Assembly: GCA_964353785.1 (NCBI GenBank)
Contig: CAYGWK010000001.1
Span: forward strand, 26,982 to 90,981
DNA length: 64,000 nt
Direction: 5' to 3'
From: an uncultured Gammaproteobacteria bacterium
Lineage (GTDB): Bacteria > Patescibacteriota > Microgenomatia > CAYGWK01
Shown: positions 1,318-46,795 of the stretch, in pieces
Layout of the letters: each line of letters begins with the position of its first letter
How positions within the stretch are numbered: position 1 is the first letter of the stretch
The notes under the pieces: generated by a model
Seen by the model: only the letters and a program-made list of their open reading frames with translations
What the model was told of the DNA's origin: nothing
Database searches by the model: none
Position numbers and translations under genes: made by a program

Positions 1318-1746
1318 ATGAAAAAAATTTCAGTTTTTTGTGACGGAGGGGCGAGGAGAAATCCTGGTCCGGCAGCCATCGCTTTTGTGGTTTCGGAAGA
1401 CGGAAAAATTATTTATAAATTTTCCAAAAAAATTGGCCAGACAACCAATAATGTGGCTGAATATCAGGCAGTAATAGAAGCCTTGAAGTGGCTAAAAGCT
1501 AATCAACTAATCAACCAATCAACTAATCAACCAATCAATTTTTATTTAGATTCTCAACTAGTTGTAAATCAACTTAATGGTTTTTTCAAAATTAAAGATG
1601 CTAAACTGCGAGACTTAATAATTAAAGCAAGAATTCTTGAGCAAGAAATTAGTGGAAAAATTTTTTACAATTTGATTTCTCGACGACAGAATAAAATGGC
1701 TGATACTTTAATTAATCAAAGTCTTAACGCGGTTTCACGTTGGTAA
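1318..1746 (+). CDS. rnhA: Ribonuclease HI
   Basis: 'CDGGARRNPGPAAIAFVV' (catalytic D at N-terminus) and 'TNNVAEYQAVIEALKWL' are classic RNase H motifs; carries an internal NQ-rich insert encoded by an octamer repeat. Confidence 0.75.
   Translation: MKKISVFCDGGARRNPGPAAIAFVVSEDGKIIYKFSKKIGQTTNNVAEYQAVIEALKWLKANQLINQSTNQPINFYLDSQLVVNQLNGFFKIKDAKLRDLIIKARILEQEISGKIFYNLISRRQNKMADTLINQSLNAVSRW
1501..1538 (+). repeat. Octanucleotide tandem repeat (ctaatcaa/ccaatcaa x4) inside rnhA, encoding NQLINQSTNQPIN
   Basis: Direct reading: aatcaa|ctaatcaa|ccaatcaa|ctaatcaa|ccaatcaa. Confidence 0.8.
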
Positions 1747-1753
1747 ACTTATA

Positions 1754-3670
1754 ATGTTTAAATCGGCAGATTTTCAAGAACCAGAAGATCTTTTTCACAG
1801 GGCAGAAAAAATTTTTCAAGAAGAAAAACCAAAACCAGAAAAGAAAAATTTTACTCTTCTTTTTGCTATTTTACTTATTCTTTTAATCTCTTCGCCATTG
1901 ATTTTTTTGGGCATAAATTTTTCGCTTTCAGCTTTTCGGATTAAACAAATCCAAAAATCAGTTCAAACTTTTGATTTAGTAAGAATGAGGAGTCAGGCAA
2001 AAAGCCTGGAGAAAAGTCTTGGCCGAGATATTAATTTTTTGGAGGTTTCAAATTCCCTCTTGGGCATTTTAGGATTTCAGGAAGAATTCTTGAGAATTCA
2101 AAACCTTCTTCTTTTTGGAAAAATAACTTCCGAGAGTCTTTATGAGCTGGCAGAAGTATCTTTAGGGGGAGAAAAAATTTTAAAGAAAGTTCTATCTGGC
2201 GAAGAAATCAGTCTTGAGGAAGATTTATTGGAGGCAAGCCTCGGAATTGATAAGGTCTATGAAAAAACCTCTTATGCCCAAGGGTTTTTGGACGAATTTT
2301 CAGGAAAAGAACCTCTGATTGGTCCTTATCTTTTAAAGGCTAAGAAAAGTTTGCCGAACTTCAGAAAAAATTTAATTATTGCCAGGGAAGTAGTTGATAT
2401 TATCCCCCAAGCCTTAGGAACGAAAGAAAGGAAAACTTATTTAGTTCTTTTTCAAAATAATATGGAAATTCGCCCCACTGGAGGCTTTATTGGCTCTTTT
2501 GGGCTTTTGACCTTTGAAAGGGGTCGCCTTTTGGATTTTGAAATTCAAGATGTTTACTTTGCCGATGGGCAACTCAAAGGTCACGTTGAACCACCAGCAA
2601 AACTTAAAGAATTTTTAGGTCAAGCCGGTTGGTATCTGCGAGATTCAAACTGGGATCCAGATTTTCCTGCTTCGGCCGAGCGAGCCGCCTGGTTTCTCGA
2701 TAAAGAAATCTCAAGACAAGTTGATGGGGTGATTGGAATTAATTTGACCGTGGCTCAAAGAATCTTGGAGAGCATTGGCGAGATAGAGCTTCCAGATTAT
2801 CCAGAGAAAATTTCGGCAAAGAATTTTTTTGAGAGGGCTGAGTATTTTTCTGAAGCAGGATTTTTTCCGGGCTCAACTGGTAAACAAGATTTCTTAGGTC
2901 AGGTTGGAAGAGTTCTTTTTGAAAAAATTAAAAACTCTGATGAAAAAACCTCATTTTTAATTGCCCGCGCCTTTTTGGCTTCTCTTGAAGAAAAAGACAT
3001 GACAATCTTTTTGAAAGATCCCCTAGAAGCTTCTGTTTTAGCAAAATTTAATTGGGACGGAGGGATAAAAAATGTCAAATGTTCCGCCACAGGCGGATCA
3101 AATGTCAAATGTTTGACAGATTACTTGTTTTTGGTTGAAGCAAATGTGGGAGTGAATAAGAGCAATTACTTTTTGAAGAGAAGTCTAGAACAAACGGTTA
3201 AGATCGGAGAAGACGGAAAAGTAAGCGAACGCCTAATTATAAATTACGAAAATCAAAGCCCATCAGAAGTTTTTCCGGCTGGAAGATATAAAAATTATTT
3301 GCGAATATATGTCCCAAAGGGAAGCACGCTTGGGGAATGTAAAATTGGAAATGAAGAATGCAAAATTGACCAAACTGAGGAGCATCAAAGAACTGTTTTT
3401 GGTTTTTTGGTTGAAGTGCCGGTTGGAGAAAAGAAAAAAGTTGAGATTTCCTGGGGTTTACCAAACTTGTTTGAGAAAGGCGAGTATGTTTTGCTTTTTC
3501 AAAAACAATCAGGAAGCGCAAGAGACAATCTTAGTTTATCAGTTTCTTATCCAGGAAATCTTTTCTTGATGGAAACCCAGCCCTCTGCCTTGACGGGGCA
3601 AGGTTTAATCATTTATAATACAACCTTGTCTCGAGACTTAGTATTTAGACTAAATTTTTTAAAAAAGTAA
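1754..3670 (+). CDS. DUF4012-like membrane-anchored protein
   Basis: N-terminal TM ('FTLLFAILLILLISSPLIFLGINF') followed by a large extracytoplasmic domain with 'MEIRPTGGFIGSFGLLTFERGRLLDFEIQDVYFADGQ', typical of the DUF4012 family found in CPR/Actinobacteria. Confidence 0.5.
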   Translation: MFKSADFQEPEDLFHRAEKIFQEEKPKPEKKNFTLLFAILLILLISSPLIFLGINFSLSAFRIKQIQKSVQTFDLVRMRSQAKSLEKSLGRDINFLEVSNSLLGILGFQEEFLRIQNLLLFGKITSESLYELAEVSLGGEKILKKVLSGEEISLEEDLLEASLGIDKVYEKTSYAQGFLDEFSGKEPLIGPYLLKAKKSLPNFRKNLIIAREVVDIIPQALGTKERKTYLVLFQNNMEIRPTGGFIGSFGLLTFERGRLLDFEIQDVYFADGQLKGHVEPPAKLKEFLGQAGWYLRDSNWDPDFPASAERAAWFLDKEISRQVDGVIGINLTVAQRILESIGEIELPDYPEKISAKNFFERAEYFSEAGFFPGSTGKQDFLGQVGRVLFEKIKNSDEKTSFLIARAFLASLEEKDMTIFLKDPLEASVLAKFNWDGGIKNVKCSATGGSNVKCLTDYLFLVEANVGVNKSNYFLKRSLEQTVKIGEDGKVSERLIINYENQSPSEVFPAGRYKNYLRIYVPKGSTLGECKIGNEECKIDQTEEHQRTVFGFLVEVPVGEKKKVEISWGLPNLFEKGEYVLLFQKQSGSARDNLSLSVSYPGNLFLMETQPSALTGQGLIIYNTTLSRDLVFRLNFLKK

Positions 3671-5406: not shown

Positions 5407-5991
5407 CTACTTTATAATCTCTTCTAACTCTCTCGTTTCCTCGTAATTTGGGTCAAGCTCGAGAGCTTTTTGAAGGTTTTCTTGGGCTTTTTGGCGATTT
5501 CCTAATTTAAAATAATAAAGCGCCAAATGAAGATAGCCGTCGCGGTAGGTTGGAGTTTCCGAAACGACCCTTTCCCATTTTTCAACTAATTTTTGAAGTT
5601 CTTGGGGGTTTTCTTCTTGATATCTAAGCCAAAGCTCCTCAAACCAGGAGGTGGCGCCTAAAACAGATAGTTCATGGTTGATGGTTAATGATTGAGCGAT
5701 AGTTAACTCTTTTTCTGCTTCTTTAATTTGATTATTTTTCAAAAACTCTTCTGCCAAAATTAAATGGGCCTCAAAATCATTTGGGTTTTTCAAAACCCTT
5801 TCTCGAGCCATTTGAAATTTATCTTTAGGAAGAAAGAAAGAATAAAAAGTGATTAATAAAAGAAGAGCCACCCCAGCCGGCGCCCCCCACTTTTTGGCAG
5901 AACGATAAGCCTGACGTTCTCGCAGAGTTCGGATTTTTTGAATTTTGTTTTCAAACCAAGGCTTAAAACCTAAATTTTTCTTTTTGGCCAT
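5407..5991 (-). CDS. TPR-repeat protein with an N-terminal TM anchor
   Basis: TM 'GVALLLLITFYSFFL', followed by TPR-like helices ('AHLILAEEFLKNNQIKEAEKELTIAQ', 'LALYYFKLGNRQKAQENLQKALELDP'). Confidence 0.5.
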   Translation of the reverse strand: MAKKKNLGFKPWFENKIQKIRTLRERQAYRSAKKWGAPAGVALLLLITFYSFFLPKDKFQMARERVLKNPNDFEAHLILAEEFLKNNQIKEAEKELTIAQSLTINHELSVLGATSWFEELWLRYQEENPQELQKLVEKWERVVSETPTYRDGYLHLALYYFKLGNRQKAQENLQKALELDPNYEETRELEEIIK

Positions 5992-8177
5992 TTTGCAGAA
6001 ATTAAAAGACCCTTTTTTCCGGGCAATTTTTGGTAAATTTCTTCAGTAATAAAGGGCATAAAGGGATGTAACAGTTTAAGACTTGTGTCTAAGACCTGAA
6101 GTAAAATTGGTTGGGCTTCATTTCTTCTGGTTTTACTTGCCTCAATATATTTATCGCAAAACTTATGCCAGAAAAATTCATAAAGCTCTTCGGCTGCCTG
6201 ACCTAGTCTGAATTTTTCAATGTCATCAGTTACAGATTTTGCTGTTTTACCTAATTCCTCAAGAATCCAGCTATCGTCGGGATTAAGCGTTGATTTCCAC
6301 TGATGACCAGACTGATTTTCGCCGATTTGATCAGTGTTAATCCGTTTTGAATCTGCGGGAATCTGCGTAAAAACGAAGCGAGCCGCGTTCCAGATTTTAT
6401 TGCAAAAATTTCTCATCGCTTCTATTTTTTCTTCAGACAAAGCCAGGTCTTTGCCTGGGGTTGAGCCAAAAACCAGAGCCATCCGCAAAGCGTCAGTGCC
6501 ATAAACTTTTATGACATCCAAAGGATCAATAACATTGCCTTTACTTTTTGACATTTTTTGACCAAAAGCATCCCGAACCAAACCATGAAGAAAAACAATT
6601 TCAAAAGGAACTTTTTTTGTTCGATAAAGGCCAAGCATAATCATTCTGGCGACCCAGAAAAATAAAATCTCATAACCTGTTTCCATCACCGAAGTGGGGT
6701 AAAAGTATTTATAATCAGAAGAATCAGGAAAACCCAAGGTGGTAAAAGGCCATTGACCAGAGGAGAACCAGGCATCTAGCGTATCCGGGTCTTGAATTAA
6801 TTTTTTATTTTTGCATTTTGGACACTGCCTTGGTTTTTTAACTGAAGCAATAATTTCTCCACAGCCTAGTTCCTCAATTTTTGCCAAATCTGGGTTCATT
6901 AATTTTTGCAAAGTTGATAAATTTTCTGCCCCGCAGTACCAAATGGGAATTTGGTGGCCCCACCAAAGTTGGCGAGAGATACACCAATCGCGGATATCTT
7001 TCATCCACAAAAAATAATTTTTTTCAAATCTCGAAGGGATAATTTTGATTTTTTTACTTTTAACCATAAAGGCTGCTTTTCGGGCAAGGGGTTTGGTTTT
7101 GACAAACCACTGTAAAGAAACTTGAGGTTCACTCACGGTTTTGCATCTTTCACAATGTCCAACCGAATGAGTATAATCTTCGATTTTTTCAAGCAAACCT
7201 TTAGCCTCTAAGTCTTGGATGATTTTTTCTCTGGCTTTCAAAACCTCAAGCCCAGCATATTTTCCTCCCTTTTGGGTCATTTTATTATCAAAACCAATAA
7301 CCTGGACTGCCGGAAGTTTATTTTTTTGGCCAATTTCAAAATCGGCTGGATCATGGGCCGGGGTGACTTTAACCGCTCCTGAACCAAATTCAGGGTCAAC
7401 GCTTTTGTCAGCCACAATGGGAATTTCTCGATGCATTAAAGGCAAGGCTACAGTTTTACCAATCACCTCTTTATATCTTTTGTCCTTTGGGTTAACCGCC
7501 ACGGCTGTGTCCCCAAGCATGGTTTCGGGTCTTGAAGTGGCGACGGTGATAAATTTATCCTCGTTTTTGAAGACATAGCGAATAAACCAAAGCTTAGTTT
7601 TTTCTTCTTTGTGTTCAATCTCTAAATCTGATAAAGCGGTTTGACAGCGGGGACACCAGTTTATGATTCTTTCTGAGCGAAAAATCAAATCCTTTTGATA
7701 CATTTTGACAAAGGTTTCAAGAACAACCTCTGAAATTTTTGGGTCTAAGGTGAATTTTTCTCGTTGCCAATCACAAGAAGCGCCTAAGGCCTTCATCTGG
7801 TCGTACATTGTTTGTTTATTAGAAAGAGTAAATTTAAGAATTTCCTCATAAAACTTTTCTCTCCCTAAATCAAATCTTGTTTTTCCTTCTTCGGCTAGTT
7901 TTTTCTCAAAAACAACCTGGGTCAAAATTCCGGCGTGGTCGGCTCCGGGAAGCCACAAAGTAGGTTCGTCAAGCATGCGGTGAAAGCGAACGAGTAAATC
8001 TTGAATGGCGACAAATCTGGCGTGACCAATATGAAGGGGAGCGTTGGCATTGGGCGGAGGCATGATGATAGAAAAAGGCTTTTTGCCAATTTTTATTTTT
8101 GGAGAAAAAGCCCTGGACTCTTCCCACATTTGATAGATTTTTTTCTCCACTTTTTGCGGCTGGTAAACTTTTTCCAT
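5970..8177 (-). CDS. valS: Valyl-tRNA synthetase (short form lacking the C-terminal coiled-coil)
   Basis: 'PPPNANAPLHIGHA' (HIGH region in a ValRS-type context), 'KMSKSKGNVIDP'; ValRS-like editing and anticodon-binding regions; 735 aa. Confidence 0.85.
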   Translation of the reverse strand: MEKVYQPQKVEKKIYQMWEESRAFSPKIKIGKKPFSIIMPPPNANAPLHIGHARFVAIQDLLVRFHRMLDEPTLWLPGADHAGILTQVVFEKKLAEEGKTRFDLGREKFYEEILKFTLSNKQTMYDQMKALGASCDWQREKFTLDPKISEVVLETFVKMYQKDLIFRSERIINWCPRCQTALSDLEIEHKEEKTKLWFIRYVFKNEDKFITVATSRPETMLGDTAVAVNPKDKRYKEVIGKTVALPLMHREIPIVADKSVDPEFGSGAVKVTPAHDPADFEIGQKNKLPAVQVIGFDNKMTQKGGKYAGLEVLKAREKIIQDLEAKGLLEKIEDYTHSVGHCERCKTVSEPQVSLQWFVKTKPLARKAAFMVKSKKIKIIPSRFEKNYFLWMKDIRDWCISRQLWWGHQIPIWYCGAENLSTLQKLMNPDLAKIEELGCGEIIASVKKPRQCPKCKNKKLIQDPDTLDAWFSSGQWPFTTLGFPDSSDYKYFYPTSVMETGYEILFFWVARMIMLGLYRTKKVPFEIVFLHGLVRDAFGQKMSKSKGNVIDPLDVIKVYGTDALRMALVFGSTPGKDLALSEEKIEAMRNFCNKIWNAARFVFTQIPADSKRINTDQIGENQSGHQWKSTLNPDDSWILEELGKTAKSVTDDIEKFRLGQAAEELYEFFWHKFCDKYIEASKTRRNEAQPILLQVLDTSLKLLHPFMPFITEEIYQKLPGKKGLLISAKWPKRKI

Positions 8178-8186
8178 TGAGGATAA

Positions 8187-9284
8187 TTATACTTCACCAG
8201 TAATTGTCAGTCCAGGCTCAACTTTAATTTTCTGCTCCGCCAAAGGCGGACAGGCAATAATTGGTTTGAAGTTGAAATAAGCAAAAGAAGAAACGTAGGC
8301 AGCATTATCAGTACAGAGCGCAGGAGCGGGTATGAATAATTGATAATTAGATGATTGGATAATTAGATGATTGGATAATTTTTCTCTTAATCTCTTATTT
8401 GCCGCCACCCCACCAGCTAAAAGAATTGATTTGACCTTATATTTTTCCGCTGCCCGGATGGTTCTTTCCACCAAAACATCGGTAATTGCCTCCTGGATCT
8501 CAAAAGATAATTGTTGAATGGTTAAATGGTTAAATTGTTGATTGGTTTTTAAACTTTGAACCTCGCGAATAACGGCTGTCTTAAGGCCTGAAAAAGAAAA
8601 GTCAAAATTTTCCTCCTCAATCATCGGCCTGGGAAGACTAATTCCTAATTCCTGATTCCTGTTTCCTAACCTTACTGCCGCAGCAGCAATCGCTGGTCCT
8701 CCTGGATACCCTAGCCCTAAAACCCGAGCGCATTTATCAAAACATTCACCCGAAGCATCATCTCTTGTTCCTCCGAGCCAGCGAAGTTTACCCCGACCTT
8801 TGGAGGGGTGATTTTTCATTAAAACCAAATCAGTATGGCCGCCGGAAACAACTAAGGCGATGGCGGGAAATTCCGGTTTTGATTCCAACCAATTCGCATA
8901 AATATGAGCCACCAAATGATTAACGGGTATGATTGGTTTTTTCCAAACAAGGCTTAGGGTTTTAGCGGTTTCAACTCCAACCAAAAGCGAACCGATGAGT
9001 CCGGGACCGATGGTGACGGCGATGGCGTCAATGTCATCGTGATACGTGATACGAGACACGTGAGACGTTTTACGTATTGCGTTTTGCGTATCACGTATTG
9101 CCTCCTTAATTACCGGAATTATGCAGCGGATTTGCTCCCGAGCTGCCACCTCCGGAATAATCCCCCCAGTTTTTTTATGAAGTTCAACCGAAGAGGCGAT
9201 GACATTGGATAAAATCTTTGTCCCATCCTCTACGACTGCCGCCGCCGTCTCATCACAGGAGGTTTCAATTCCTAAAATTCTCAT
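8187..9284 (-). CDS. tsaD: tRNA N6-adenosine threonylcarbamoyltransferase TsaD (Kae1/Gcp family), with three low-complexity in-frame inserts
   Basis: 'MRILGIETSCDETAAAVV', 'GGVAANKRLRE', 'LVVSGGHTDL'; inserts encoded by the repeat tracts at 8342-8380, 8641-8670 and 9039-9101. Confidence 0.85.
   Translation of the reverse strand: MRILGIETSCDETAAAVVEDGTKILSNVIASSVELHKKTGGIIPEVAAREQIRCIIPVIKEAIRDTQNAIRKTSHVSRITYHDDIDAIAVTIGPGLIGSLLVGVETAKTLSLVWKKPIIPVNHLVAHIYANWLESKPEFPAIALVVSGGHTDLVLMKNHPSKGRGKLRWLGGTRDDASGECFDKCARVLGLGYPGGPAIAAAAVRLGNRNQELGISLPRPMIEEENFDFSFSGLKTAVIREVQSLKTNQQFNHLTIQQLSFEIQEAITDVLVERTIRAAEKYKVKSILLAGGVAANKRLREKLSNHLIIQSSNYQLFIPAPALCTDNAAYVSSFAYFNFKPIIACPPLAEQKIKVEPGLTITGEV
8342..8380. 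repeat. 16-nt tandem repeat (gataattagatgattg x2.4) inside tsaD
   Basis: Direct reading. Confidence 0.8.
8641..8670. repeat. Heptanucleotide tandem tract (attccta/attcctg/attcctg/tttccta) inside tsaD
   Basis: Direct reading; encodes 'LGNRNQELGI'. Confidence 0.8.
9039..9101. repeat. GTGATAC-type heptamer tract plus inverted repeat (gtgatacg...cgtatcac) inside tsaD
   Basis: gtgatacgtgatacgagacacgtgagacg...tacgtattgcgttttgcgtatcacgtattgc; encodes 'AIRDTQNAIRKTSHVSRITYH'. Confidence 0.8.
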
Positions 9285-11047
9285 GGTACTGGTCCGGTGC
9301 CTCGCAAAAATATTGCTTGCCAGGGCTGATAGTTTGAATAAAAGGTCCGTTCCTGTAAAACCTCGCCACCTCTTTCAACTTTCCAGTCAAAAGCGACCTT
9401 GGCTCCCCAGGCTTTCCAGTCTATTTGTTTAATTTGGCCAGAAGGCAGGGTTGGATCATCTTGATATAAATCAGGCGGTGGAGGAACCTGGTCCCAAACT
9501 CGGGATTTGCCAATTAAAGATACCCTTCCGTCCGAGGTTCCATAAAGTTCAAAAACTAATTTTTTATTTTTGGTATCAACCAAAGTTTGAATCAAAATAT
9601 AGGCTGGAGTATCGTTTTTAAATTTCAAATCCGCAGTTGGGTCCCAAACCGTGGCATCCAAACCTGGAGAAAAACCCTGCTCATAATAAGATACCCTATA
9701 GGCATGGGGATGTCTTTCCTCCACAGGTAAACCAGCCGAAAGAACGGCCCGAAACAGGGTTGTTGAGACCTGACAAACTCCGCCGCCGTCGCCTAAAATT
9801 GTTCTTCCTTCGCGAATAACATAGGCTTCTTGATAGCCTGTAGCCTGAGAAACTTCGCCCAAGGAACGGTTGAAGGAAAAAGTCTCTCCAGAGGGAATTA
9901 AAATTCCATTCAATCTTGAAGAAGCCAAGGTAATATTATGGATTCTTGAGGTAATTGAGCCCCTGAAGAAAGATTCACCTTTGCCCAAAAGCTCCTTAAT
10001 ACCGAGGCTGTTGACATCTTGGGTTTTGACCTGGGGAGGAATTTTTGCAAAAGGAATAGAAAGAGTTTCTTTTTTTGCCCCTTCCTTTTCAATTTTTTCA
10101 AGAAGAGACAAAAGCCCGCTTTTTAATTTTTCTTCATCAATTTTTATTCCCTCTTTGGCAGGTTTAAAGATAACCACTTTTCCTTCAGAGAACTGAAAGG
10201 CAGCATTTTGAGGAGGGCGATTAAAAGTTGAAGAAAGGTTAGCCGCCACGCTTGCGATTTTCTCTTGGTCAAACCCGTCCCAGGGAGAAACAAGGTCAAT
10301 TAAATCTTTTTCCATTAAGGTTTGCGACTCTTCTTCAAGGACAAGTTCTATTTTTTTATCCAAAAACTTTTCCGCTCTCTCTTTGGTTTTTTCAAGTTCC
10401 GCTGGGGTGAGTTTTGGAGTGGTAAAAATAATTGGCAGGGAAATTGGCTCGCTTGAAAGTTGGACTAAGTTTAAGTTTACTTTTTCTCGAAGAAGTTTTA
10501 AGTCTGCCTCCTGGCCATCTTTTCCTGGGTCGATGATGATCTGTTTTCCAGAAAGAAGAATTTGGGGTTCAATAGCGGGAATAAAAATTGCCTGGGAAAT
10601 TTCTTCTAATTTTTGGCCTAGGGCAGACTGATTAAGACTATAACTTAAAGGGAGATTAATTTCTCCTTTCCAGGCATGCCATTTTTCTAAATAGGCACGG
10701 AAAGGATTTTTATTTCTGCCAACTGAATAAGCTGAATTTACATCTTTTTCGATATCATAAGATAATTCAAGTTCGGACAAAGAAATATTCCAGGTCTTGC
10801 CTGGAGCGCTAATTATAATTTCATTTGGTTTTTTGGCTTGAATCTCTTGGAAGAGAAAATTTTTGGCTTGGTTTTTGGTTTTGTTTCCCAAGTCTATTCC
10901 GGCGACGTTAACCCCTGGATAAATTCGGCCAAAATAGGCAAGATGATAGGCAAGAAGAACAACCAAAGTAAACCCGAGAGCAAAAATTGGGATTAGTTTA
11001 AAAAACTTCTTGAAACGAACTTCCATTTTCCTGTATGATATACTCAA
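9281..11047 (-). CDS. VanW-family protein with an N-terminal TM anchor
   Basis: 'GDGGGVCQVSTTLFRAVLSAGLPVEERHPH' is the VanW core motif; N-terminal TM 'LIPIFALGFTLVVLLAYHL'. Confidence 0.7.
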   Translation of the reverse strand: MSISYRKMEVRFKKFFKLIPIFALGFTLVVLLAYHLAYFGRIYPGVNVAGIDLGNKTKNQAKNFLFQEIQAKKPNEIIISAPGKTWNISLSELELSYDIEKDVNSAYSVGRNKNPFRAYLEKWHAWKGEINLPLSYSLNQSALGQKLEEISQAIFIPAIEPQILLSGKQIIIDPGKDGQEADLKLLREKVNLNLVQLSSEPISLPIIFTTPKLTPAELEKTKERAEKFLDKKIELVLEEESQTLMEKDLIDLVSPWDGFDQEKIASVAANLSSTFNRPPQNAAFQFSEGKVVIFKPAKEGIKIDEEKLKSGLLSLLEKIEKEGAKKETLSIPFAKIPPQVKTQDVNSLGIKELLGKGESFFRGSITSRIHNITLASSRLNGILIPSGETFSFNRSLGEVSQATGYQEAYVIREGRTILGDGGGVCQVSTTLFRAVLSAGLPVEERHPHAYRVSYYEQGFSPGLDATVWDPTADLKFKNDTPAYILIQTLVDTKNKKLVFELYGTSDGRVSLIGKSRVWDQVPPPPDLYQDDPTLPSGQIKQIDWKAWGAKVAFDWKVERGGEVLQERTFYSNYQPWQAIFLRGTGPVP

Positions 11048-17962: not shown

Positions 17963-19597
17963 ATGGCTAAACAACTTTTATATTCAGAAGAGGCCAGAGA
18001 AAAACTAAAGAAAGGCATCGATGCTGTTGCCCGAGCCGTGGGAACCACCCTTGGCCCGAAAGGTCGGAATATTGCTTTAGACAAAAAATGGGGTGCTCCC
18101 TCAGTGGTTCATGACGGCGTTTCTGTGGCTAAAGAGATTGAGCTTAAGGACCCATTCGAGAATATGGGAGCTCAATTAATTAGGGAGGCAGCTGATAAAA
18201 CTAATGACGCTACCGGTGATGGGACAACCACAGCTACCATTTTGACCCAGGCAATTGTTAATGAGGGAATCAAAAACATAACCGCTGGCGCCAATCCGAT
18301 GGTTCTTATTAAGGGAATTGAAAAGGCAGCCCAAAAGGTGGTTGAGTCAATTAAGAAACAAGCAAAACCGGTTAAAGGTGGTCAAGACATTACCCAAATA
18401 GCCACCATTTCTGCCGCTTCTCCGGAGATTGGTCAAAAAATTGCCGAGGCTTTGGAAAAGGTTGGCCGAGACGGGGTAGTGACGGTTGAAGAAGGTAAAG
18501 GTTTGACTTTGGAAATTGAATACAAAGAAGGAATGGAGTTTGATAATGGTTACGTCTCTCCCTATTTTGTTACCAACCCCGAGAAAATGGAGGCGGAAAT
18601 TGAAAACCCCTACATTTTAATTACTGATAAAAAGATTTCCGCTTTAGATGAATTTTTGCCTTTTTTGGAGAACTTTGTTAAAACTTCAAAAGACCTGGTG
18701 ATTGTGGCTGATGATTTAGAAGGTGAAGCGCTAGCAACTTTGGTGGTTAACAAACTTCGGGGAACAATAAATCTTTTAGCCGTTAAGGCTCCTGGTTTTG
18801 GGGACAGAAGAAAGGAAATGCTTGAAGATATTGCTATTTTAACTGGGGGAACGGTGATTTCTGAAGATACGGGCAGAAAATTTGAGTCAATTGAGATTTC
18901 TGATTTAGGTCAGGCTGATAAAGTCTGGAGCGATAAAGATAATTGCCGAATAATTGGCGGAAAAGGAAGCGAGTCTGCAATTAAAGGCAGAATTGGTCAG
19001 ATTAAAAAGCAAATTGAGAGCGAGACTTCGGATTTTGATAAAGAAAAACTTCAAGAGAGATTGGCGAAATTATCTGGCGGAGTGGCCCAAATTAATGTTG
19101 GAGCGGCGACCGAAGTTGAATTAAATGAAAAAAAAGAAAGAGTCAAAGATGCGGTTGAGGCAACCAAGGCGGCGATTGAAGAAGGAATTGTTCCTGGCGG
19201 CGGGGTAGTTTTATTTGAGGCGGCCAAAGAATTAGACCCAAAACTTCTAAAAGATGTTCCTGGAGAAGGAGACCAGGCAACTGGAGTTAAGGTTGTCAAA
19301 GAGGCTCTGTGGGCCCCAATTAAAAAATTAGCCGAGAATGCTGGAGTAAATGGTGACGTTGTCATTCAGGAAATTGAGAAAAAAGAAGCTGGCTTTGGTT
19401 TTGATGTTTTGGATGGTCAATATAAAGATATGGTTAAAGCGGGAATTATTGACCCAGCCAAAGTGACTCGAATTGCTCTTCAAAATGCAGTTTCGGTGGC
19501 GATAATGATTTTAACTACAGAGGGGTTGATTACCGATATTCCGGAAAAAGAAAAAGAAACTCCAGGAGCGGCTATGCCACCGGGAGGAGAATACTAG
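17963..19597 (+). CDS. groEL: Chaperonin GroEL
   Basis: '[45 protein letters not shown]', '[14 protein letters not shown]', C-terminal '[10 protein letters not shown]'. Confidence 0.95.
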
Positions 19598-19602
19598 TTA
19601 CC

Positions 19603-19623
19603 AATTTCTAATTTCTAATTACT
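19603..19623. repeat. Heptamer tandem tract (aatttct/aatttct/aattact), intergenic after groEL
   Basis: Direct reading. Confidence 0.7.
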
Positions 19624-19630
19624 AATGATT

Positions 19631-19652
19631 CCGCCAAAGGGCGGATTTTTTA
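19631..19652 (+). terminator. Intrinsic terminator of groESL (ccgcc-aaag-ggcgg plus T-run)
   Basis: Direct reading. Confidence 0.7.
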
Positions 19653-34063: not shown

Positions 34064-34525
34064 TTACTTTTTCCTAAATAAACTTTCAATCTTTCCCGTC
34101 CATTTGGAAGCCCATTTTTCCGCTTCGATTTTCTTTAAGGCCAGGATATAACCTTTTGACTTTCTGGCTTTGTCAACCGAGGCAACAGTGGCTGAAGAAA
34201 CCTTTAGATTTTGTTTAATATTCTCATAGCTTCGGCCATGGGTAAGATAATAGGCAACCGCTAATCTTTTTGCCAAAGCAATTGTTTCGTTTTTTCCTAA
34301 AACATCTTCAAAAAAAAGGGCAACTTCTTGAGGATTTTTTAAATCAGCAATAAGTTGATAGAGAATTTGAAAAATCTCTTTTTGGAGGTTTTTATTAATT
34401 TGTCTTTTTGAGACCTGCATGTAAAGAAAAACCCACTTTAGGCAATTAAAGTGGGCAGTTTGATACTTTAAATAATTAAACCACAAATCCCAGCGATTGT
34501 CAATGGCGAGAAAAAAATAATTCAA
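34064..34525 (-). CDS. TrpR/YerC-YecD-like DNA-binding protein
   Basis: 'LGKNETIALAKRLAVAYYLTHGRSYENIKQNLKVSSATVASV' matches the TrpR-like HTH pattern; the real start is probably the internal Met ('MQVSKRQ'). Confidence 0.4.
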   Translation of the reverse strand: MNYFFLAIDNRWDLWFNYLKYQTAHFNCLKWVFLYMQVSKRQINKNLQKEIFQILYQLIADLKNPQEVALFFEDVLGKNETIALAKRLAVAYYLTHGRSYENIKQNLKVSSATVASVDKARKSKGYILALKKIEAEKWASKWTGKIESLFRKK

Positions 34526-34808
34526 AAGAAAGAAAAATTCCTAACAGAAGAACTAGGTTTGAAATATTTAAAAGTTTAAACTGCTGAAGGATGGCTATGC
34601 TGATAGCACCTAGAGCCAATAAAAATCCTCTTCGGCTGTTGCCCAAGATTAAAGAAAAAGTAAGAAATAAGGAGATAAAAAGCAAGAAGTAAAAAGTAAA
34701 AAGTAAAAGATTGGATTCTGGGACAGTAAAAAGTAAGATATAAACCCAGCAAAGCCAGGAAAGGATGGTTAGAAGAAATGAAGGCAGAAAATTTTTCCTT
34801 CTCCTCAT
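34500..34808 (-). CDS. Hypothetical small membrane protein containing a heptamer-repeat-encoded segment
   Basis: 3 TM segments; 'FTFYFLLF' is encoded by the gtaaaaa tract. Confidence 0.25.
   Translation of the reverse strand: MRRRKNFLPSFLLTILSWLCWVYILLFTVPESNLLLFTFYFLLFISLFLTFSLILGNSRRGFLLALGAISIAILQQFKLLNISNLVLLLGIFLSFELFFSRH
34682..34709. repeat. Heptamer tandem tract (gcaagaa/gtaaaaa/gtaaaaa/gtaaaag) within an ORF
   Basis: Direct reading. Confidence 0.75.
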
Positions 34809-38842: not shown

Positions 38843-41743
38843 ATGGCTGAAGAGAAGAAATTAAATAAGGAGCAACTTGAGGCAGTTAAACATGGTGAAG
38901 GTCCGCTTCTGATTATTGCTGGGGCCGGAACGGGGAAAACGACGGTTATTACCGAGCGAATTAAGTGGTTGGTTTCCTCTGGGAAAGCAAAACCCGCAGA
39001 AATCCTGGCTTTAACTTTCACTGACAAAGCCGCTCGGGAAATGGAAGAACGGGTGGATATTGCCATGCCTTTAGGCTTTATCCAAATGTGGATTTCTACT
39101 TTCCACTCTTTCTGCGACCGAGTTTTGCGAGCCGAAGCCTTACATATTGGTCTTGACCCAAAATATAATCTTTTAACCGAGGCAGAAACTATTCAATTTT
39201 TACGAACCAATCTTTTTAAATTTGACTTAAAATACTTTAGACCCCTAGGAAATCCTAATAAATTTATTGCCGGCATGCTTCAACATTTCTCGCGGCTTAA
39301 AGACGAGGATGTTAGTCCGGAAGAGTACCTTAAATACGCAAATAAACAAATGTCCAATAAACAAATTTCAAATGAGGAGAAGGAGAAGACGCTTGAGTTG
39401 GCGAAAGCATATAAAACTTATGAAGAATTAAAAGTTAAAGAGGGAGTGATGGATTTTGCTGATTTAATCTCCAATACCCTAAAACTTTTTCGGACCAGAA
39501 AAAATGTTTTAAAAGAATATCAAGATAAGTTTGAATATATTTTAGTTGATGAATTTCAAGACACAAATTATGCCCAAAATGAACTAGCCATGCTTTTGGC
39601 GGGCCCGCCTGCCGGCGAGGCAAGCAAGAAAGCAAACTTGACCGTGACCGGAGATGATGACCAGAGTATTTATAGATTTCGGGGGGCAGCCGTCTCAAAT
39701 ATTATTCAATTTCGGCAAAATTATCCCAAGGCAAAAATCGTGGTTTTGACCAAAAATTATCGTTCAACTCAGGAAATTTTAGACCAGGCCTACAATTTAA
39801 TTCAAAACAATAACCCTGACAGACTTGAGGTTAAAGAAAAAATTATAAAAAAACTTGAGGCAGTCCGGAAAATAAAAGGAGGAAAAATTGGTTTTGTCAA
39901 AACCGACCGGGTAGAAAACGAGGCCGAAGCAGTGGCAGAGACAATTAAAAAGCTCCAAGCTTCAAGTTCCAATTTCAAATATTCAGATTTTGCTATTTTG
40001 ATTAGGGCAAATAATCACGCTGATGCTTTTGTCCGGGCGCTTGCCAGGGCGGGAATTCCTTATCAGTTTTTGGGTCCGGGAATGCTTTTTCGCCAGCCAG
40101 AAGTCAAGGATTTAATCGCTTATCTTAAAGTTTTATATAATTTTGAAGATTCAGTGGCCATGTATCGGATTTTGGCCATGGATTTTTTTGAAATTTCTCC
40201 TCGAGATTTGGCGGCCATTTCCAATTTCGGGCGTCGCCAGAACCTTTCCCTTTTCGAAGCTTGTGAGCAGGTCGATAAAGTCTTCGTTTCTCAAAAAACT
40301 CGGGAAACCGTAGAAAAAATAGTTAAAATGATTCATCGCCATTTAGGCTTGATTAAAAAAGAAACCGCCGGCCAGATTCTTTATTATTTTTTAGAAGATA
40401 CCGGACTCCTTCGGAAATTGGCTGAATACAAAACTCCGGTCGAGGAACGCCGGGCCCAAAATATTTCCAAATTTTTTGACAAATTAAAAACTTACGAAGT
40501 TGAACATGAAGACGCCAGCGTGTTTGTGGTTTCTGATTGGATTGACCTTTCTTTGGAACTTGGAGAATCACCTTTGGCGGCAGACATGGATTGGACTGAA
40601 GTTGATGCGGTCAATATTTTGACCGTTCATTCTAGCAAAGGCTTAGAATTTCCGATAGTTTTTTTGGTAAATTTGGTTTCCCAAAGATTTCCGACAATTG
40701 AACGAAGAGAGCAAATTCCAATTCCTGAAGCGTTAATTAAAGAAATCTTACCAGTAGGTGATTATCATCTTGAGGAGGAGCGCCGGCTTTTTTATGTGGG
40801 CATGACTCGAGCCCAAGATTTACTATTTTTGACTGCCGCAGACTTCTATGGCGAAGGAAAAAGAGAAAGAAGGCTTTCCCCATTCGTCTTTGAGACTCTG
40901 GGAGAGGAAGCAATTAAGCGATTGGGGAATTTAGCAATTGAGGAAAAGCAGTTATCTCTCCTGGAGTGGGCAAAACCAGCGGAAACATCCCGAATTATCC
41001 AATCATCTAATTATCCAATTAACTACTTATCTTTTTCCCAAATTGACACTTTTAATACCTGTCCTTTGCAATATCGTTATAAATTCATCCAGCGGATTCC
41101 TGTTCTGCCCGGAGCGGCGGCTAGTTTTGGAGATTCAATTCATAAAACTTTGCGAGATTTTTATCAAAGAGTAAAAAAGGGAGAAAAGTTAACAAAAAAA
41201 GACCTACTTAAAATCTTGGAGATTAACTGGTCATCTCAAGGATACGCCAGCAAAATCCATGAGGAAAAGATGAAAAAGGTTGGGGAGCGGATGCTGTCTG
41301 ATTTTTATGAAAAATTTGATTCAAAAATTGTTCCTCGCGATTTAGAACAATCATTTATTATCAAAGTTAGCCCAAATCTTAAAATTGGGGGAAAAATTGA
41401 CAGGATTGATGAAAAAGAAGGAAAAATTGAGATTATTGACTATAAGACCGGCAAGATTTTAGAGCAAAAAGATATTGATAAATCCTTACAGATGACGGTT
41501 TATGCCTTGGCCGCCACTGATAAAGGGCTTTACGACAAAAAACCAGAAGAGGTAGTCTTAACTTTTTATTTTCTGGAGAATTTAGAAAAGAAATCAACAA
41601 AAAGAACAGTAGAACAGTTAAAACAGGCTAAAAGCCAGCTTCTTGAAAAGGCAAAAGAAATTGAAAAAAGTACCTTTGAACCAACCCCTGGAGTTTGGTG
41701 TGATTTTTGCGACTTCAAACTAATCTGCGAAGCCTGGCAATAA
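38843..41743 (+). CDS. UvrD/PcrA-family helicase fused to a C-terminal PD-(D/E)xK (RecB/AddAB-like) nuclease with a Cys cluster
   Basis: Walker A 'IIAGAGTGKTTVITERI', 'VDEFQDTN', 'LTKNYRST', 'VHSSKGLEFP'; C-terminal 'IIDYKTGK', 'GVWCDFCDFKLIC'. Confidence 0.75.
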   Translation: MAEEKKLNKEQLEAVKHGEGPLLIIAGAGTGKTTVITERIKWLVSSGKAKPAEILALTFTDKAAREMEERVDIAMPLGFIQMWISTFHSFCDRVLRAEALHIGLDPKYNLLTEAETIQFLRTNLFKFDLKYFRPLGNPNKFIAGMLQHFSRLKDEDVSPEEYLKYANKQMSNKQISNEEKEKTLELAKAYKTYEELKVKEGVMDFADLISNTLKLFRTRKNVLKEYQDKFEYILVDEFQDTNYAQNELAMLLAGPPAGEASKKANLTVTGDDDQSIYRFRGAAVSNIIQFRQNYPKAKIVVLTKNYRSTQEILDQAYNLIQNNNPDRLEVKEKIIKKLEAVRKIKGGKIGFVKTDRVENEAEAVAETIKKLQASSSNFKYSDFAILIRANNHADAFVRALARAGIPYQFLGPGMLFRQPEVKDLIAYLKVLYNFEDSVAMYRILAMDFFEISPRDLAAISNFGRRQNLSLFEACEQVDKVFVSQKTRETVEKIVKMIHRHLGLIKKETAGQILYYFLEDTGLLRKLAEYKTPVEERRAQNISKFFDKLKTYEVEHEDASVFVVSDWIDLSLELGESPLAADMDWTEVDAVNILTVHSSKGLEFPIVFLVNLVSQRFPTIERREQIPIPEALIKEILPVGDYHLEEERRLFYVGMTRAQDLLFLTAADFYGEGKRERRLSPFVFETLGEEAIKRLGNLAIEEKQLSLLEWAKPAETSRIIQSSNYPINYLSFSQIDTFNTCPLQYRYKFIQRIPVLPGAAASFGDSIHKTLRDFYQRVKKGEKLTKKDLLKILEINWSSQGYASKIHEEKMKKVGERMLSDFYEKFDSKIVPRDLEQSFIIKVSPNLKIGGKIDRIDEKEGKIEIIDYKTGKILEQKDIDKSLQMTVYALAATDKGLYDKKPEEVVLTFYFLENLEKKSTKRTVEQLKQAKSQLLEKAKEIEKSTFEPTPGVWCDFCDFKLICEAWQ

Positions 41744-42542
41744 TTGGATTATAGAATTTTGTGAAACTTTCTGGATATTCAATTTCTTTCCCTCCAAAAC
41801 TTTTCTTAAAATGAGAAAAACCGAGCCAGGATTTTTGGGGAAATCTTTCGTCATAAATTCCCTCAAAATCAAAAACTTCACAATTTTTTCTTTTTGCTAA
41901 TTTTATTGCTTCCCAGACAACTAAATATGGAGCAGATAATTTTCGTCCTTCGGGAGTTGAGGCGGCGTGGAAATAATAAGCAGTTTTGTCAGAGAATAAG
42001 ATTAGGGCACCAGCGAGAGGATGGCGAGACGTGATACGTGATATGTGATATGTAAGAAAGAGATGAGCGTTTTTACCAAAAGCCTGATAAATACTTCTAA
42101 TTTCTTTGCCAAAAGGAATCCAGAAACCGCGACGAAGGGCATTTTTATGCCAGATTTTAATAAATAATTCGATATCTTCGGATTGTTTGACAATGATTTT
42201 ATTGCGAAGCAACAAACTTTGTTTATTTTTTTCTGCTTTTCTGATTTCATAGCGAGCATCTTTTTTAAATTGAGCAAAAATTTTTTCTTCAGATTGAGTT
42301 AAGTCTACCTGAAGAGTTTTTGTGGGAGAATAATTTATTTGAACAGCAAAGGCATGATATTTTTTAGCAAGACTTTCAAGTTTTTTTGCTGAAATTTTAG
42401 ATGGTAGTCGCTGGATTTTAATAAAATTACCAAGAATTGGAAGATGGCGAATATAAAATCGGAAGTTTTTTTCTTTACCGACAATCCAGTTGATTTTCTC
42501 CATAAAACAGGCAAATTCAGAAGATTGGCGTAAGTCTTGCAT
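41715..42542 (-). CDS. FemAB-family (aminoacyl-tRNA-dependent peptidyltransferase) protein; short, mainly the C-terminal GNAT-like half
   Basis: 'GALILFSDKTAYYFHAASTPEGRKLSAPYLVVWEAIKLAKRKNCEVFDFEG' is the FemAB C-domain signature. Confidence 0.55.
   Translation of the reverse strand: MQDLRQSSEFACFMEKINWIVGKEKNFRFYIRHLPILGNFIKIQRLPSKISAKKLESLAKKYHAFAVQINYSPTKTLQVDLTQSEEKIFAQFKKDARYEIRKAEKNKQSLLLRNKIIVKQSEDIELFIKIWHKNALRRGFWIPFGKEIRSIYQAFGKNAHLFLTYHISRITSRHPLAGALILFSDKTAYYFHAASTPEGRKLSAPYLVVWEAIKLAKRKNCEVFDFEGIYDERFPQKSWLGFSHFKKSFGGKEIEYPESFTKFYNPIIARLRRLV
42026..42052. repeat. GTGATAC/GTGATAT heptamer tract inside the FemAB gene (the same motif as in tsaD at 9039)
   Basis: gagacgtgatacgtgatatgtgatatg; encodes 'TYHISRITSRH'. 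Confidence 0.8.
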
Positions 42543-44759: not shown

Positions 44760-46795
44760 ATCTTGGTCTTTCCTGATTGAAAAACAATTTCTCCAATTTG
44801 AGCAAATTTTTCTTCAGAAATTTTATACTTTTCTCTTTCTTTCTCTCCGACAAAAATATATTGGACGTTATATTTTTTAATTAAATCTAAAGCCTGATCT
44901 TTATTCTTTGTTTCATAAATTGCTTGGACTTCGTTTGCTCTTTTTCCTGGCTCATCAAAACTTCCTCGCCAGAGCCATTCATGAACTAACCAGCCCTCAA
45001 TTGTTGGTAGTCCAGTTAGGGCAGAGACTCGGTTAAAAAGAGTGTAACTGTCTCCGCTTGCCTCTAAAACTACTAGTTGATTCTTAATATTTTTGTTTAA
45101 CCAGGTAATTGCTTGATAATCATCTGGAGAGGTTCTTTTTAAAAATGAAAGACCATATAAGCCATGATAAATTTTTAAATTACCATAATATGAATTAATG
45201 GCAAAGTAGGGATAAATAAAAACAAAAGTAAAAAGTAAAAAGTAAAAAGCAAAAAGCATAAATTTTAAAACTTTCTTTTTTAACGAAGTGAGAATTTGAA
45301 CAATGATGTATCCTGAAGCGAGAGCGTACATCATAAAAGATTGGTAAACCAGTTTAAACATGGTGTTGGCGCGATGATAAGAGGGAATATAGATATCCTT
45401 AACATAGAAAAATTCTGGGATAATGATTAAAAAGGTGGCAACAGAAATAAGAATTAAGATAAAGATGTCAGGAATTTGTAATTGGGAATTAGTGATTCTT
45501 TTCTTGAGAACCAGGAAAATAATAAAACTTAAAAAAATTATCCATTGATAACCCCATAAAACCAAAAGTTGCCAGAAAGGAGAGTGGGCATTAACTGAGG
45601 CAATTCCCTTAGCGATTTGGGAAAAGGAAAGATTAAAGGGAAGAGAGAAGAGAATACTACCAGTAAGTACCAATACTACCAACCCGCCTGCCAGCGCCTT
45701 CGGCGCAAGCCGATGGCGGGCAGGTAAACCAATATTTAAAAATGATTTATAGAAAATTGTTGCTCCTAAAATTGAAAAATAAATCGGAAAATCCCAAGAA
45801 TTGGTCATATATAAGACGCCCAGGAGCAAAGATATAAAGATATAAAGAGATAAGGAGGGTTTCTTGGACGCAAAAATAGTGAAGACTGTTGCGAGAAATA
45901 AAAGAACAAAGGGAATATTAGAGACGTGCCCATGTAGGTCGGAAACCACAAAGGAATAAATAGGAAATTCGTGAATAGTGTTATCGATTGCCCCAAATTT
46001 TTCCACAATAAACCGGGTAGCATCAGGATACCAATAAGCGGCAAAATTGAAATTATGGGTTAAAAACCACCAAAAGGCATGAAGATTGCCACCCAGGGTT
46101 AATAAAAAGGCAGAGAGTAGACCGCCAATAAATACCAATTTCCAATAATTACCAATTTTCAATTTCAAATGAAATATGAGATTTGATGCCAGGGAGAATG
46201 TACCCGTAAAAGTTAGGGCGAAAATGGTAGCAATCATTAGGTTGTAGGTAATAGCTGGATCTATTCCGGAAAGTTTTGTTAAAACAGCGGCCACCAAATG
46301 CCCGAAATAATAATAGTTAATGGTTTTTCCGGCCATCCACATATCCAAAGGAGGAAAATATTGACTGCGGAGAATAGAATTAACAAATCCGAAATCCATA
46401 AATTTCTCAAGTCCCTCAATATCAGGTTGAAAACCACGGATAAAAGACCAAGAGGTTAGGGCGACAAAGAAAAGAATTTCTTCAAAAAATAAAATCTTCC
46501 AGGATTTTTTAAGAGACGTCTTAAACTCTCCCTCGTTTTTCTTAGCCAAAATTATATTTAGTCCTGCCAGAACTAAAACTGTAAGCCAAATAGTTGGAGT
46601 TCCGAAAGGAAGAAGATGAAGGCTGCCCAAAAGCCAGACAAAATAACTGACTAGCAAAATGGCAATTATTTTTGAAAATGAATATCCAAGGTCAAAAAAT
46701 TTTTTGAAAAACCACCAAGTTAGGGGCAAAAAAGCCACCCCTAATCCGAAAAGTAAAAACCACCAAGAAAAAATTATGAAAAAATCAGAAATCAT
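44732..46795 (-). CDS. Large polytopic membrane protein with a C-terminal soluble domain (DUF2298/YYY-type, putative glycosyltransferase-like)
   Basis: More than 14 TM segments; C-terminal 'PTIEGWLVHEWLWRG...KYNVQYIFVGEKEREKY'; contains a heptamer tract. Confidence 0.35.
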   Translation of the reverse strand: MISDFFIIFSWWFLLFGLGVAFLPLTWWFFKKFFDLGYSFSKIIAILLVSYFVWLLGSLHLLPFGTPTIWLTVLVLAGLNIILAKKNEGEFKTSLKKSWKILFFEEILFFVALTSWSFIRGFQPDIEGLEKFMDFGFVNSILRSQYFPPLDMWMAGKTINYYYFGHLVAAVLTKLSGIDPAITYNLMIATIFALTFTGTFSLASNLIFHLKLKIGNYWKLVFIGGLLSAFLLTLGGNLHAFWWFLTHNFNFAAYWYPDATRFIVEKFGAIDNTIHEFPIYSFVVSDLHGHVSNIPFVLLFLATVFTIFASKKPSLSLYIFISLLLGVLYMTNSWDFPIYFSILGATIFYKSFLNIGLPARHRLAPKALAGGLVVLVLTGSILFSLPFNLSFSQIAKGIASVNAHSPFWQLLVLWGYQWIIFLSFIIFLVLKKRITNSQLQIPDIFILILISVATFLIIIPEFFYVKDIYIPSYHRANTMFKLVYQSFMMYALASGYIIVQILTSLKKKVLKFMLFAFYFLLFTFVFIYPYFAINSYYGNLKIYHGLYGLSFLKRTSPDDYQAITWLNKNIKNQLVVLEASGDSYTLFNRVSALTGLPTIEGWLVHEWLWRGSFDEPGKRANEVQAIYETKNKDQALDLIKKYNVQYIFVGEKEREKYKISEEKFAQIGEIVFQSGKTKIYKIDSTKL
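45221..45262. repeat. Heptamer tandem tract (aacaaaa/gtaaaaa x3/gcaaaaa/gcataaa) inside an ORF
   Basis: Direct reading; encodes 'MLFAFYFLLFTFV'. Confidence 0.8.

Follow-up and report, generated by a model that had tools for sequence, protein, structure and literature searches.

The tsaD gene is essential in other bacteria and is assumed to be so here. The copy analysed in this study raises the question of how tandem repeats whose units are not multiples of three came to lie within its reading frame, and what keeps them there. The gene lies in a stretch of 64,000 nucleotides (positions 26,982 to 90,981 of contig CAYGWK010000001.1), which we refer to as the window. A sequence-only reading of the window had proposed that three in-frame tracts within tsaD, one of them palindromic, are either tolerated surface loops kept in frame by selection or the footprints of a small insertion element. 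Our results favour tolerated loops. The tracts are probably long simple sequence repeats (SSRs) with 7- or 8-nt units, made in place by slippage and then filtered by selection. The tandem-repeat signature is lineage-wide and genome-wide, and not a peculiarity of tsaD as had been supposed.

The gene is on the minus strand at 8187-9284 and appears in the list of open reading frames (ORFs) with a product of 365 aa. This product matched the equivalog profile TIGR03723 (TsaD) with 373.5 bits against a cutoff of 296.1, covering residues 3-339, and a phmmer search against solved TsaD chains gave E = 1.6e-76. An AlphaFold (AF2) model built with 25 orthologs as input had a mean pLDDT of 80.6 and superposed on solved TsaD structures with TM scores of 0.82-0.85 (normalised by target). 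The catalytic residues His123 and His127 (the metal-binding His-x3-His) and Asp326 (the C-terminal Asp) are unchanged across the 25 orthologs. Judged by sequence and model together, the window gene is a bona fide TsaD, the tRNA t6A37 threonylcarbamoyltransferase of the Kae1/TsaD/Qri7 family, with the ASKHA fold retained in the model. The invariant catalytic residues and the modelled fold suggest that TsaD function is retained as well.

Four tracts, all on the minus strand, were called within the gene using Tandem Repeats Finder (TRF), whose periods of 16 and 14 correspond to 2 x 8 and 2 x 7, respectively. Tract 1 (9038-9101; aa 61-83, EAIRDTQNAIRKTSHVSRITYHD) is a quasi-palindrome of nine CGT-anchored heptamers (63 nt; NNNNACG on the coding strand), which TRF called as 9038-9068 (period 7, 4.4 copies) and 9065-9101 (period 14, 2.6 copies). 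After helix alpha1 it adds a net 19-21 aa or so that are missing in the orthologs of L087 and L088 (L-numbers denote the compared loci), and it is modelled as coil at residues 72-86 with a pLDDT of about 62. Tract 2 (8638-8669; aa 206-217, LGNRNQELGISL) has 4.6 copies of a heptamer of the TTAGGAA type (coding strand) with 84% matches. It runs into the native I-S-L-P-R-P codons and is placed by the model at a helix end leading into a loop. Tract 3 (8509-8547; aa 246-260, KTNQQFNHLTIQQLS; family D1) has 4.9 copies of an octamer. It is an old array common to most relatives, with conservation at the nucleotide level that extends to synonymous codons, and in the model it now spans a helix-loop-helix junction. 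Tract 4 (8342-8380; aa 301-316, EKLSNHLIIQSSNYQL) consists of 2.4 copies, 100% identical, of the 16-mer AATTATCCAATCATCT. Its nucleotides are nearly identical in L081, L085 and L090 although the flanks have diverged, and it is modelled as two short helices plus a turn ahead of a strand.

The three tracts described previously were all present where the sequence-only reading had put them and are in frame within the 365-aa ORF, but Tract 3 and two small GC-rich inserts had been missed. One of these inserts is an in-frame GC-rich hairpin (8235-8255, minus strand, GCCTGTCCGCCTTTGGCGGAG; aa 344-350, ACPPLAE) with a fold z of -3.2, in a stretch close to the C-terminus that shows a net gain of 6 aa. 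Hairpins of a similar (T)CCGCC-N-GGCGG(A) form occur in frame in tsaD of L002 and L011. The other is a 15-nt in-frame insert (8793-8807, minus strand; PSKGR, aa 160-164), which lies in a weak GC stem, CACCCCTCCAAAGGTCGGGGT (fold z = -1.0), and is shared with L083 alone. Relative to solved TsaD chains, the net insertions at Tracts 1-4 are about 11-14, 4, 6 and 2 residues, in line with the 25 or so added residues estimated earlier, while the excess over the shortest close ortholog (318 aa) is 47 residues. The view that such segments are tolerated loops kept in frame by selection was supported: the tracts fall at helix ends or loops in the model, the catalytic residues are invariant, and the orthologs vary at these very places.

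Some other identities for the tsaD tracts were considered and dropped. An intein or intron was excluded by size. Skipping or excision of the tracts in the RNA or during translation was set aside, as there would then be no need for every one of them to be in frame and free of stops, as they are. A DnaA box was also rejected as a reading of TTATCCAAT, which is mismatched at two conserved positions of the consensus; the units of the other tracts are unrelated to it.

A window-wide autocorrelation scan, with 50 codon-block shuffles as controls, detected 10 period-7 and 4 period-8 tracts, compared to 0.00 and 0.02 per shuffle. A stricter scan retained 6 period-7 tracts and 1 period-8 tract, compared to 0.0 in dinucleotide-preserving shuffles. 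By autocorrelation, the window has no tracts at periods 4-6 or 9-11; below 12 nt, enrichment is seen only at periods 7 and 8, and a few period-12 tracts also exceed the shuffles. Related loci show the same 7/8 pattern. The arrays therefore consist of head-to-tail short units that are over-represented for their unit length, as in SSRs produced by slippage. All but one of the 14 tracts are within ORFs of unrelated function, each of them uninterrupted: RNase H, TsaD, a UvrD/PD-(D/E)XK helicase-nuclease, FemAB, DUF2298, PMT and amine oxidase proteins, and two ORFs without a family match. TRF adds a weaker tract in a TPR-protein ORF.

On the coding strand, which is almost G-free within the arrays, 12 of the 15 consensus units lack stop codons in every frame. 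None of the 15 is stop-free in all frames on the opposite strand, compared to about 55% for random units. Such a filter narrows the vocabulary of units, and similar units recur in part for this reason, an example being AATCATC, encoding IINHQSS, in tsaD and valS of different lineages. Units of 6 or 9 nt would be frame-neutral and yet are missing, so the preference for 7-8 nt must come from the mutational process.

What happens at the same loops in related genes bears most directly on the origin of the tracts. Close relatives were fetched via exact-protein look-ups, and codon-level alignments of tsaD were made for six, and then seven, orthologous loci; 80 loci of other phyla, among the matches listed, served as controls. 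The closest TsaD proteins are 57-81% identical and 318-420 aa long. The nearest named relative is Candidatus Shapirobacteria, the others being Microgenomates, Gottesmanbacteria and similar groups. The host is a Shapirobacteria-like bacterium of the Microgenomates group within the Candidate Phyla Radiation (CPR), with a repeat process that is active lineage-wide. All four tract loops are variable sites in the orthologs, and nearly every lineage has 7/8-nt-periodic DNA there, although with different units; arrays of this kind were found at tsaD loops in L081 and L083-L086. At the loop around aa 205, the units are of the AGGAATT type in the window, ATTTCCA in L083, AAATATC in L084, CTAGNCG in L085 and CAATATAG in L086. 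At the loop around aa 305, the 16-mer is present in the window, L081 and L085, whereas L083 has five GGAAATT units, L084 has TAATTAC and L086 has ATTTAAA. The sequence-only reading would have been undermined by close relatives with the same residues but no underlying repeats; instead, the orthologs carry different residues that are also repeat-encoded.

Even more informative is a pair of empty and filled sites. The ortholog in L087 (318 aa) is free of inserts, and that in L088 (334 aa) lacks the site-1 insert while still having arrays at sites 2 and 3. At the site where L087 reads ATGAAATTGGAAATTAATCTC, L083 reads ATGAAATTGGAAATTGGAAATTGGAAATTGGAAATTGATCTT, a gain of 21 nt that corresponds to exactly three GGAAATT units; no foreign sequence is present in this difference, which is a pure unit gain. 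Furthermore, the units pass into conserved native codons (CCATTAAG CCATTTAG CCATTCAG CCATTGAC, where the last unit encodes the conserved I-D-A). As units resemble and continue into the adjacent conserved codons, the arrays appear to be seeded locally and not to be foreign insertions.

Arrays at the same tsaD loops are found in independent assemblies (NCBI, JGI, ENA and Logan), and this is among the observations that effectively refute assembly or sequencing artefacts, or chance repetitiveness, as their source. The contig is metagenome-assembled and repeats are a known source of assembly error. At the same time, each tract is at most 63 nt, shorter than a read, the 13 tracts borne by ORFs leave the frames unbroken, and the enrichment over shuffles is extreme and limited to two periods. 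For one allele of a relative (L089, see below), such an error could be the cause of a frameshift.

Other genes of the relatives behave in a similar manner. Within the RNase H loop, the window has AATCAACY 8-mers, L081 has five CAGTCAC units, L084 has CAATNTAA 8-mers and L086 has no array. In valS of the relatives, two variable sites close to the C-terminal end also bear arrays or indels. The helicase linker has one array in the window, ending in the P-I-N-Y-L-S codons, and a different heptamer array in the ortholog of L095, with the net length unchanged; because of this swap, arrays must be able to overwrite unconstrained segments as well as lengthen them.

Based on these results, we propose that neighbouring native codons would seed arrays through replication slippage or template misalignment with a strong preference for a 7-8-nt register. 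As neither 7 nor 8 is a multiple of 3, each unit would be read in all three frames in turn, and the arrays that survive would be those with a net length that is a multiple of 3, units that are stop-free in all coding-strand frames, and harmless peptides. Such arrays would build up in segments without sequence constraint, gradually overwriting loops and linkers. The several permissive loops of tsaD would make it a hot spot. The quasi-palindrome of Tract 1 would be an array of the same kind, in which both unit orientations probably arose by a fold-back template switch. In this scheme, slippage as the molecular event, the cause of the 7-8-nt ruler and the template switch are the parts that we infer.

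The palindromy of Tract 1 deserves separate consideration. Its arms (9042-9068 and 9072-9098) are 78% complementary and include a perfect 12-bp stem (9042-9053 paired with 9087-9098). The DNA has a folding energy of -14.6 kcal/mol compared to -8.2 +/- 2.0 for shuffles (z = -3.3), while no secondary structure was detected in Tracts 2-4 by the same comparison with shuffles. The inverted repeat that had been noticed is therefore real, but the order of its units is unremarkable: random reordering of the nine units gave an equally good hairpin in 13% of the permutations (p ~0.13), and a specially ordered or designed palindrome in 9038-9101 was rejected on these grounds. As permuted units often fold equally well, the palindromy is a property of the unit set, which has a self-complementary ACGT core and includes both GTGATAC and its complement GTATCAC.

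Several observations weigh against local slippage as the whole explanation, the first being the recurrence of sequence. Tract 4 shares 27 identical nt with the 8/16-mer array in the helicase-nuclease gene of the window (40993-41031, plus strand). Its match to a ychF-like gene in L091 (5672-5710) is 39 identical nt long and takes in the 5' GAAAA flank. Its sequence also occurs as inverted or palindromic arrays in intergenic DNA of L092 and L094. Identical segments of 27-39 nt in unrelated genes exceed what independent local slippage predicts. They would be expected if the tracts were very small mobile or gene-converted cassettes that insert into permissive loops, or whose 7-8-bp target duplications accumulate as arrays. 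The ortholog in L086 is also suggestive of this, as its tsaD carries a palindromic array element of about 105 nt twice (10195-10320 and 10500-10620), in frame, with copies about 88% identical over about 105 nt. The element consists of CAGTAAA(A) units followed by TTTACTG units, and the proteins P0044 and P0045 bear it at the same two loops.

GC hairpins provide a further argument for cassettes. They split heptamer arrays in the window (approximately 3069-3112), at tsaD site 2 of L083 and L090, in L084 and in L014. The window case lies in a 638-aa ORF (1754-3670) without an NCBIfam match, putatively of the DUF4012 family as judged only from synteny with L081 and L084. Here, a hairpin, TCCGCCACAGGCGGA (3083-3097), is located between perfect 13-nt direct repeats, AAATGTCAAATGT, which are TCAAATG heptamers, and judging by the sequence the whole looks like a 30-nt in-frame unit resembling an insertion with target duplication. 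A similar hairpin within a repeat is found at 17539-17585 of L014. Two hairpins have perfect 13-nt flanking direct repeats, compared to 0.18 expected. In addition, the hairpin of tsaD at 8235-8255 is identical in nucleotides in the more distant L081 and missing in closer relatives.

However, the units of most tracts are unique and merge into the native sequence flanking them, and the filled site of L083 differs from the empty site of L087 by unit gain alone. The search of the 64-kb window for the same units, as had been suggested, returned a second locus for Tract 4 and for the Tract 1 unit, but the remaining units are each unique. Dispersed single copies of the 11-mer AATTATCCAAT are not seen, and a pre-specified test of hairpin-array proximity with strict array calls gave 1 observed versus 0.54 expected, which is not significant. 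At the tsaD tracts, we found no insertion boundaries, consistent target-site duplications, conserved termini or transposase-like ends. Bacterial cut-and-paste excision seldom leaves intact duplications, which also counts against cassettes. We therefore consider cassettes an unlikely general source. The proposal of insertion-element footprints is unsupported for the window tracts, although the recurrence of Tract 4 and the L086 element leave some life in it.

A second set of observations concerns conservation and stability. In the shared Tracts 3 and 4, synonymous codons are conserved in 13 of 13 cases versus 42% elsewhere (p = 2e-5), which neutral filling of loops does not predict. Concerted evolution across the three frames might, as each unit position is read in all three frames and no array site would then be truly silent. 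At the level of populations, the length of tract-bearing TsaD is constant among full-length members in 9 of 10 clusters at 90% identity, and eight sequences at 96-98% identity have no tract indels. With arrays that are length-stable in close clusters, the repeat process must be slow or episodic.

A change in copy number is seen, nonetheless, in one pair of assemblies. Over more than 1.3 kb, the sequences of L089, an NCBI Shapirobacteria metagenome-assembled genome (MAG), and L090, a JGI contig, are 100% identical apart from a single 16-nt unit in the array that corresponds to Tract 4 (3887-3901 in L089 versus 3887-3917 in L090). The missing unit in L089 results in a tsaD frameshift, illustrating the earlier statement, correct for single units, that a copy-number change shifts the frame. 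The corresponding protein of the NCBI MAG, PJE67334.1, is a frameshifted TsaD with an aberrant C-terminus. Whole-unit differences between alleles or orthologs thus include a gain of three GGAAATT units (L083 versus L087) and a loss of one 16-nt unit (L089 versus L090). The copy-number heterogeneity that was to be looked for is therefore present between these two assemblies, but absent, as far as length shows, from nearly all clusters.

The conservation of nucleotides beyond amino acids in Tracts 3 and 4, and a natural frameshift allele that is exactly one unit apart, might also suggest that the tracts are kept for a function of their own: phase variation of tsaD (a t6A switch), a nucleic-acid signal such as an mRNA hairpin or a protein-binding array, or interaction loops specific to CPR bacteria. 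The 12-bp stem of Tract 1 is consistent with this, as is an excess of arrays in tsaD: in eight CPR loci, not counting the window, this gene makes up 5.7% of the sequence and holds 12 of the 35 arrays (p = 3e-7, with shared ancestry uncorrected). On the other hand, the units at the same loop are wholly different between close relatives, some of which have none, and hence no specific sequence or peptide is required. The arrays are also short and imperfect, unlike contingency loci, and constant in length within populations of at least 90% identity. The same arrays occur in many unrelated genes, including in transmembrane segments, and Tracts 2-4 are unstructured as nucleic acid. Retention for a function of the tracts themselves is accordingly improbable.

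The remaining difficulties lie with local slippage itself. Several tracts replace native sequence without a net change in length, and therefore deletions are needed besides expansions. The step from about 2 to 5 units in an essential gene requires either frameshifted intermediates or multi-unit events, neither of which was directly observed, and slippage in place gives no reason for the 7-8-nt ruler. A bolder alternative is a Microgenomates-specific, sequence-aware process (ectopic gene conversion, or a hairpin-associated cassette with a 7-8-bp register) that rewrites loops of housekeeping genes from shared units. This would account for the 27-39-nt identities, the hairpin-split arrays with direct repeats and the nucleotide-level conservation of tracts, with the still bolder corollary that one-unit changes act as a population-level tsaD switch. 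We regard such a process as rather doubtful, and slippage in place followed by selection as the probable explanation.

The patterns of identity around tsaD are also of interest in their own right. L083 and L089/L090 are 100% identical over the first approximately 800 nt of tsaD, with abrupt divergence about 80 nt upstream of site 4 and different downstream genes. The window tsaD is a mosaic, with 86% identity to L090 at site 4 and, further downstream, 88% identity to L083. At the sequence level, the abrupt identity breaks and the mosaic window gene indicate recombination within tsaD.

The other arrays of the window vary in their setting. An AATCAACY octamer/16-mer array (1494-1540, plus strand) is in the RNase H gene, and a GTGATAC/GTGATAT heptamer array, with the unit of Tract 1, is in the FemAB-family gene (42023-42058, minus strand). 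The sole intergenic heptamer array (19592-19645, plus strand) adjoins a terminator-like hairpin, CCGCCAAAGGGCGG, plus a T-run, downstream of a chaperonin gene. T-rich heptamer arrays (CTTTTTA, CTTATTG) occur in genes for a DUF2298 membrane protein (45217-45264) and a PMT-family membrane protein (48392-48433), and another (34651-34712) is in a 102-aa ORF (34500-34808) without a family match. These three T-rich arrays translate to transmembrane-like segments rich in L/F/T/Y, suggesting that even hydrophobic segments can be repeat-built. Generally, arrays in soluble proteins encode peptides rich in N/Q/S/T/H/I, while T-rich DNA gives L/F/T/Y runs in membrane proteins.

With regard to the neighbourhood of tsaD, a valS-like class-I tRNA synthetase gene (5970-8177) adjoins it and is far more diverged from the copies of relatives than those are from one another. 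It has an extra segment of about 48 aa with a CPKC motif (WYCGAENL...CPKCKNKKLIQ), which is missing in five relatives. An NCBIfam scan of 20 ORFs of the window gave no match to tsaB or tsaE, whose products are the partners of TsaD.

Arrays of the 7/8 class are absent from most of the control loci of other phyla, and a few of these loci have heptamers only or nearly so. Desulfacyla and Chloroflexia loci among the controls L028, L032 and L076 have 6 heptamer and 0 octamer tracts each in 15-21 kb, and a Planctomycetota locus of this set has 4 heptamer tracts and 1 octamer tract in 12 kb. Within the limits of the matches listed, the heptamer process is thus patchy across bacteria, and octamers are nearly confined to the Microgenomates clade.

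Cyanobacterial small dispersed repeats and Rickettsia palindromic elements are short, lie in frame in essential genes, are tolerated in surface loops, and are in some cases palindromic. Small dispersed repeats of cyanobacteria are reportedly nested in heptamer arrays, which the GC hairpins within arrays resemble. However, both groups are dispersed, with conserved sequence and defined ends, whereas the window tracts are mostly locus-specific and flank-derived. Phase-variable contingency loci share with the present arrays non-triplet repeats within ORFs and a frame shift upon a one-unit change, for which there is one natural allele (L089). They differ in being typically long and pure, in residing in surface or restriction-modification genes and in switching frequently, while the arrays described here are short and imperfect, are in housekeeping genes, and are length-stable in close populations.

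To our knowledge, the over-representation of heptamers in bacteria, reported in 2007, has never been explained. In the passages of PMC4692102 and PMC4679880 that summarise Mrazek et al. (2007), the heptanucleotide class is the most abundant among the long SSRs of many prokaryotes, and slippage over a polymerase footprint of about 7 nt has been put forward as the cause. These passages also describe known heptamer SSRs as mainly intergenic, with coding SSRs reported to favour multiples of three. The window arrays agree with such SSRs in that 7-nt tandem arrays are over-represented relative to other lengths, units are variable, and inverted array pairs are known, as in Xanthomonas. They differ in that nearly all are in ORFs, including those of housekeeping genes, that 8-nt units are also enriched (apparently a lineage-specific trait), and that units turn over at the same loops across orthologs.

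The cyanobacterial STRR, Xanthomonas GGGAATC and Beggiatoaceae TAACTGA families (PMC4692102, PMC4679880) likewise form short arrays of 2 to about 6 heptamers with a patchy phylogeny, one translatable orientation and a peptide periodicity of 7 aa. However, in each of them a single unit dominates a genome and is located mostly upstream of genes, where regulatory roles have been suggested for it, while here many flank-related units are translated. Tandem repeats in ORFs of Borgs (PMC9879509) are similar in giving rise to new low-complexity or disordered segments; they form rapidly, and slippage has been discussed as their origin. All Borg units are nearly perfect and divisible by three in length, unlike the 7-, 8- and 16-nt units found here, which shift the frame from one copy to the next and give a peptide that repeats after three units (7 or 8 aa). 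Our literature searches found no prior description of 7/8-nt coding arrays in CPR bacteria. The arrays in coding sequence extend the known heptamer-SSR phenomenon.

The intergenic location of most known heptamer cases makes their interpretation hard. In coding sequence, selection should favour units of 6 or 9 nt, and as none were seen, the 7-8-nt ruler would be a property of the mutational machinery and not of selection. Sister lineages with and without arrays, together with orthologous empty and filled sites, offer a comparative handle on the replication or repair feature that is responsible. For those who annotate MAGs, such tracts can give rise to real or spurious frameshifts in essential genes. 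For the biology of these bacteria, they indicate that non-triplet repeats can create new protein loops, amounting to as much as about 13% of the length of TsaD, in the reduced genomes of the CPR.

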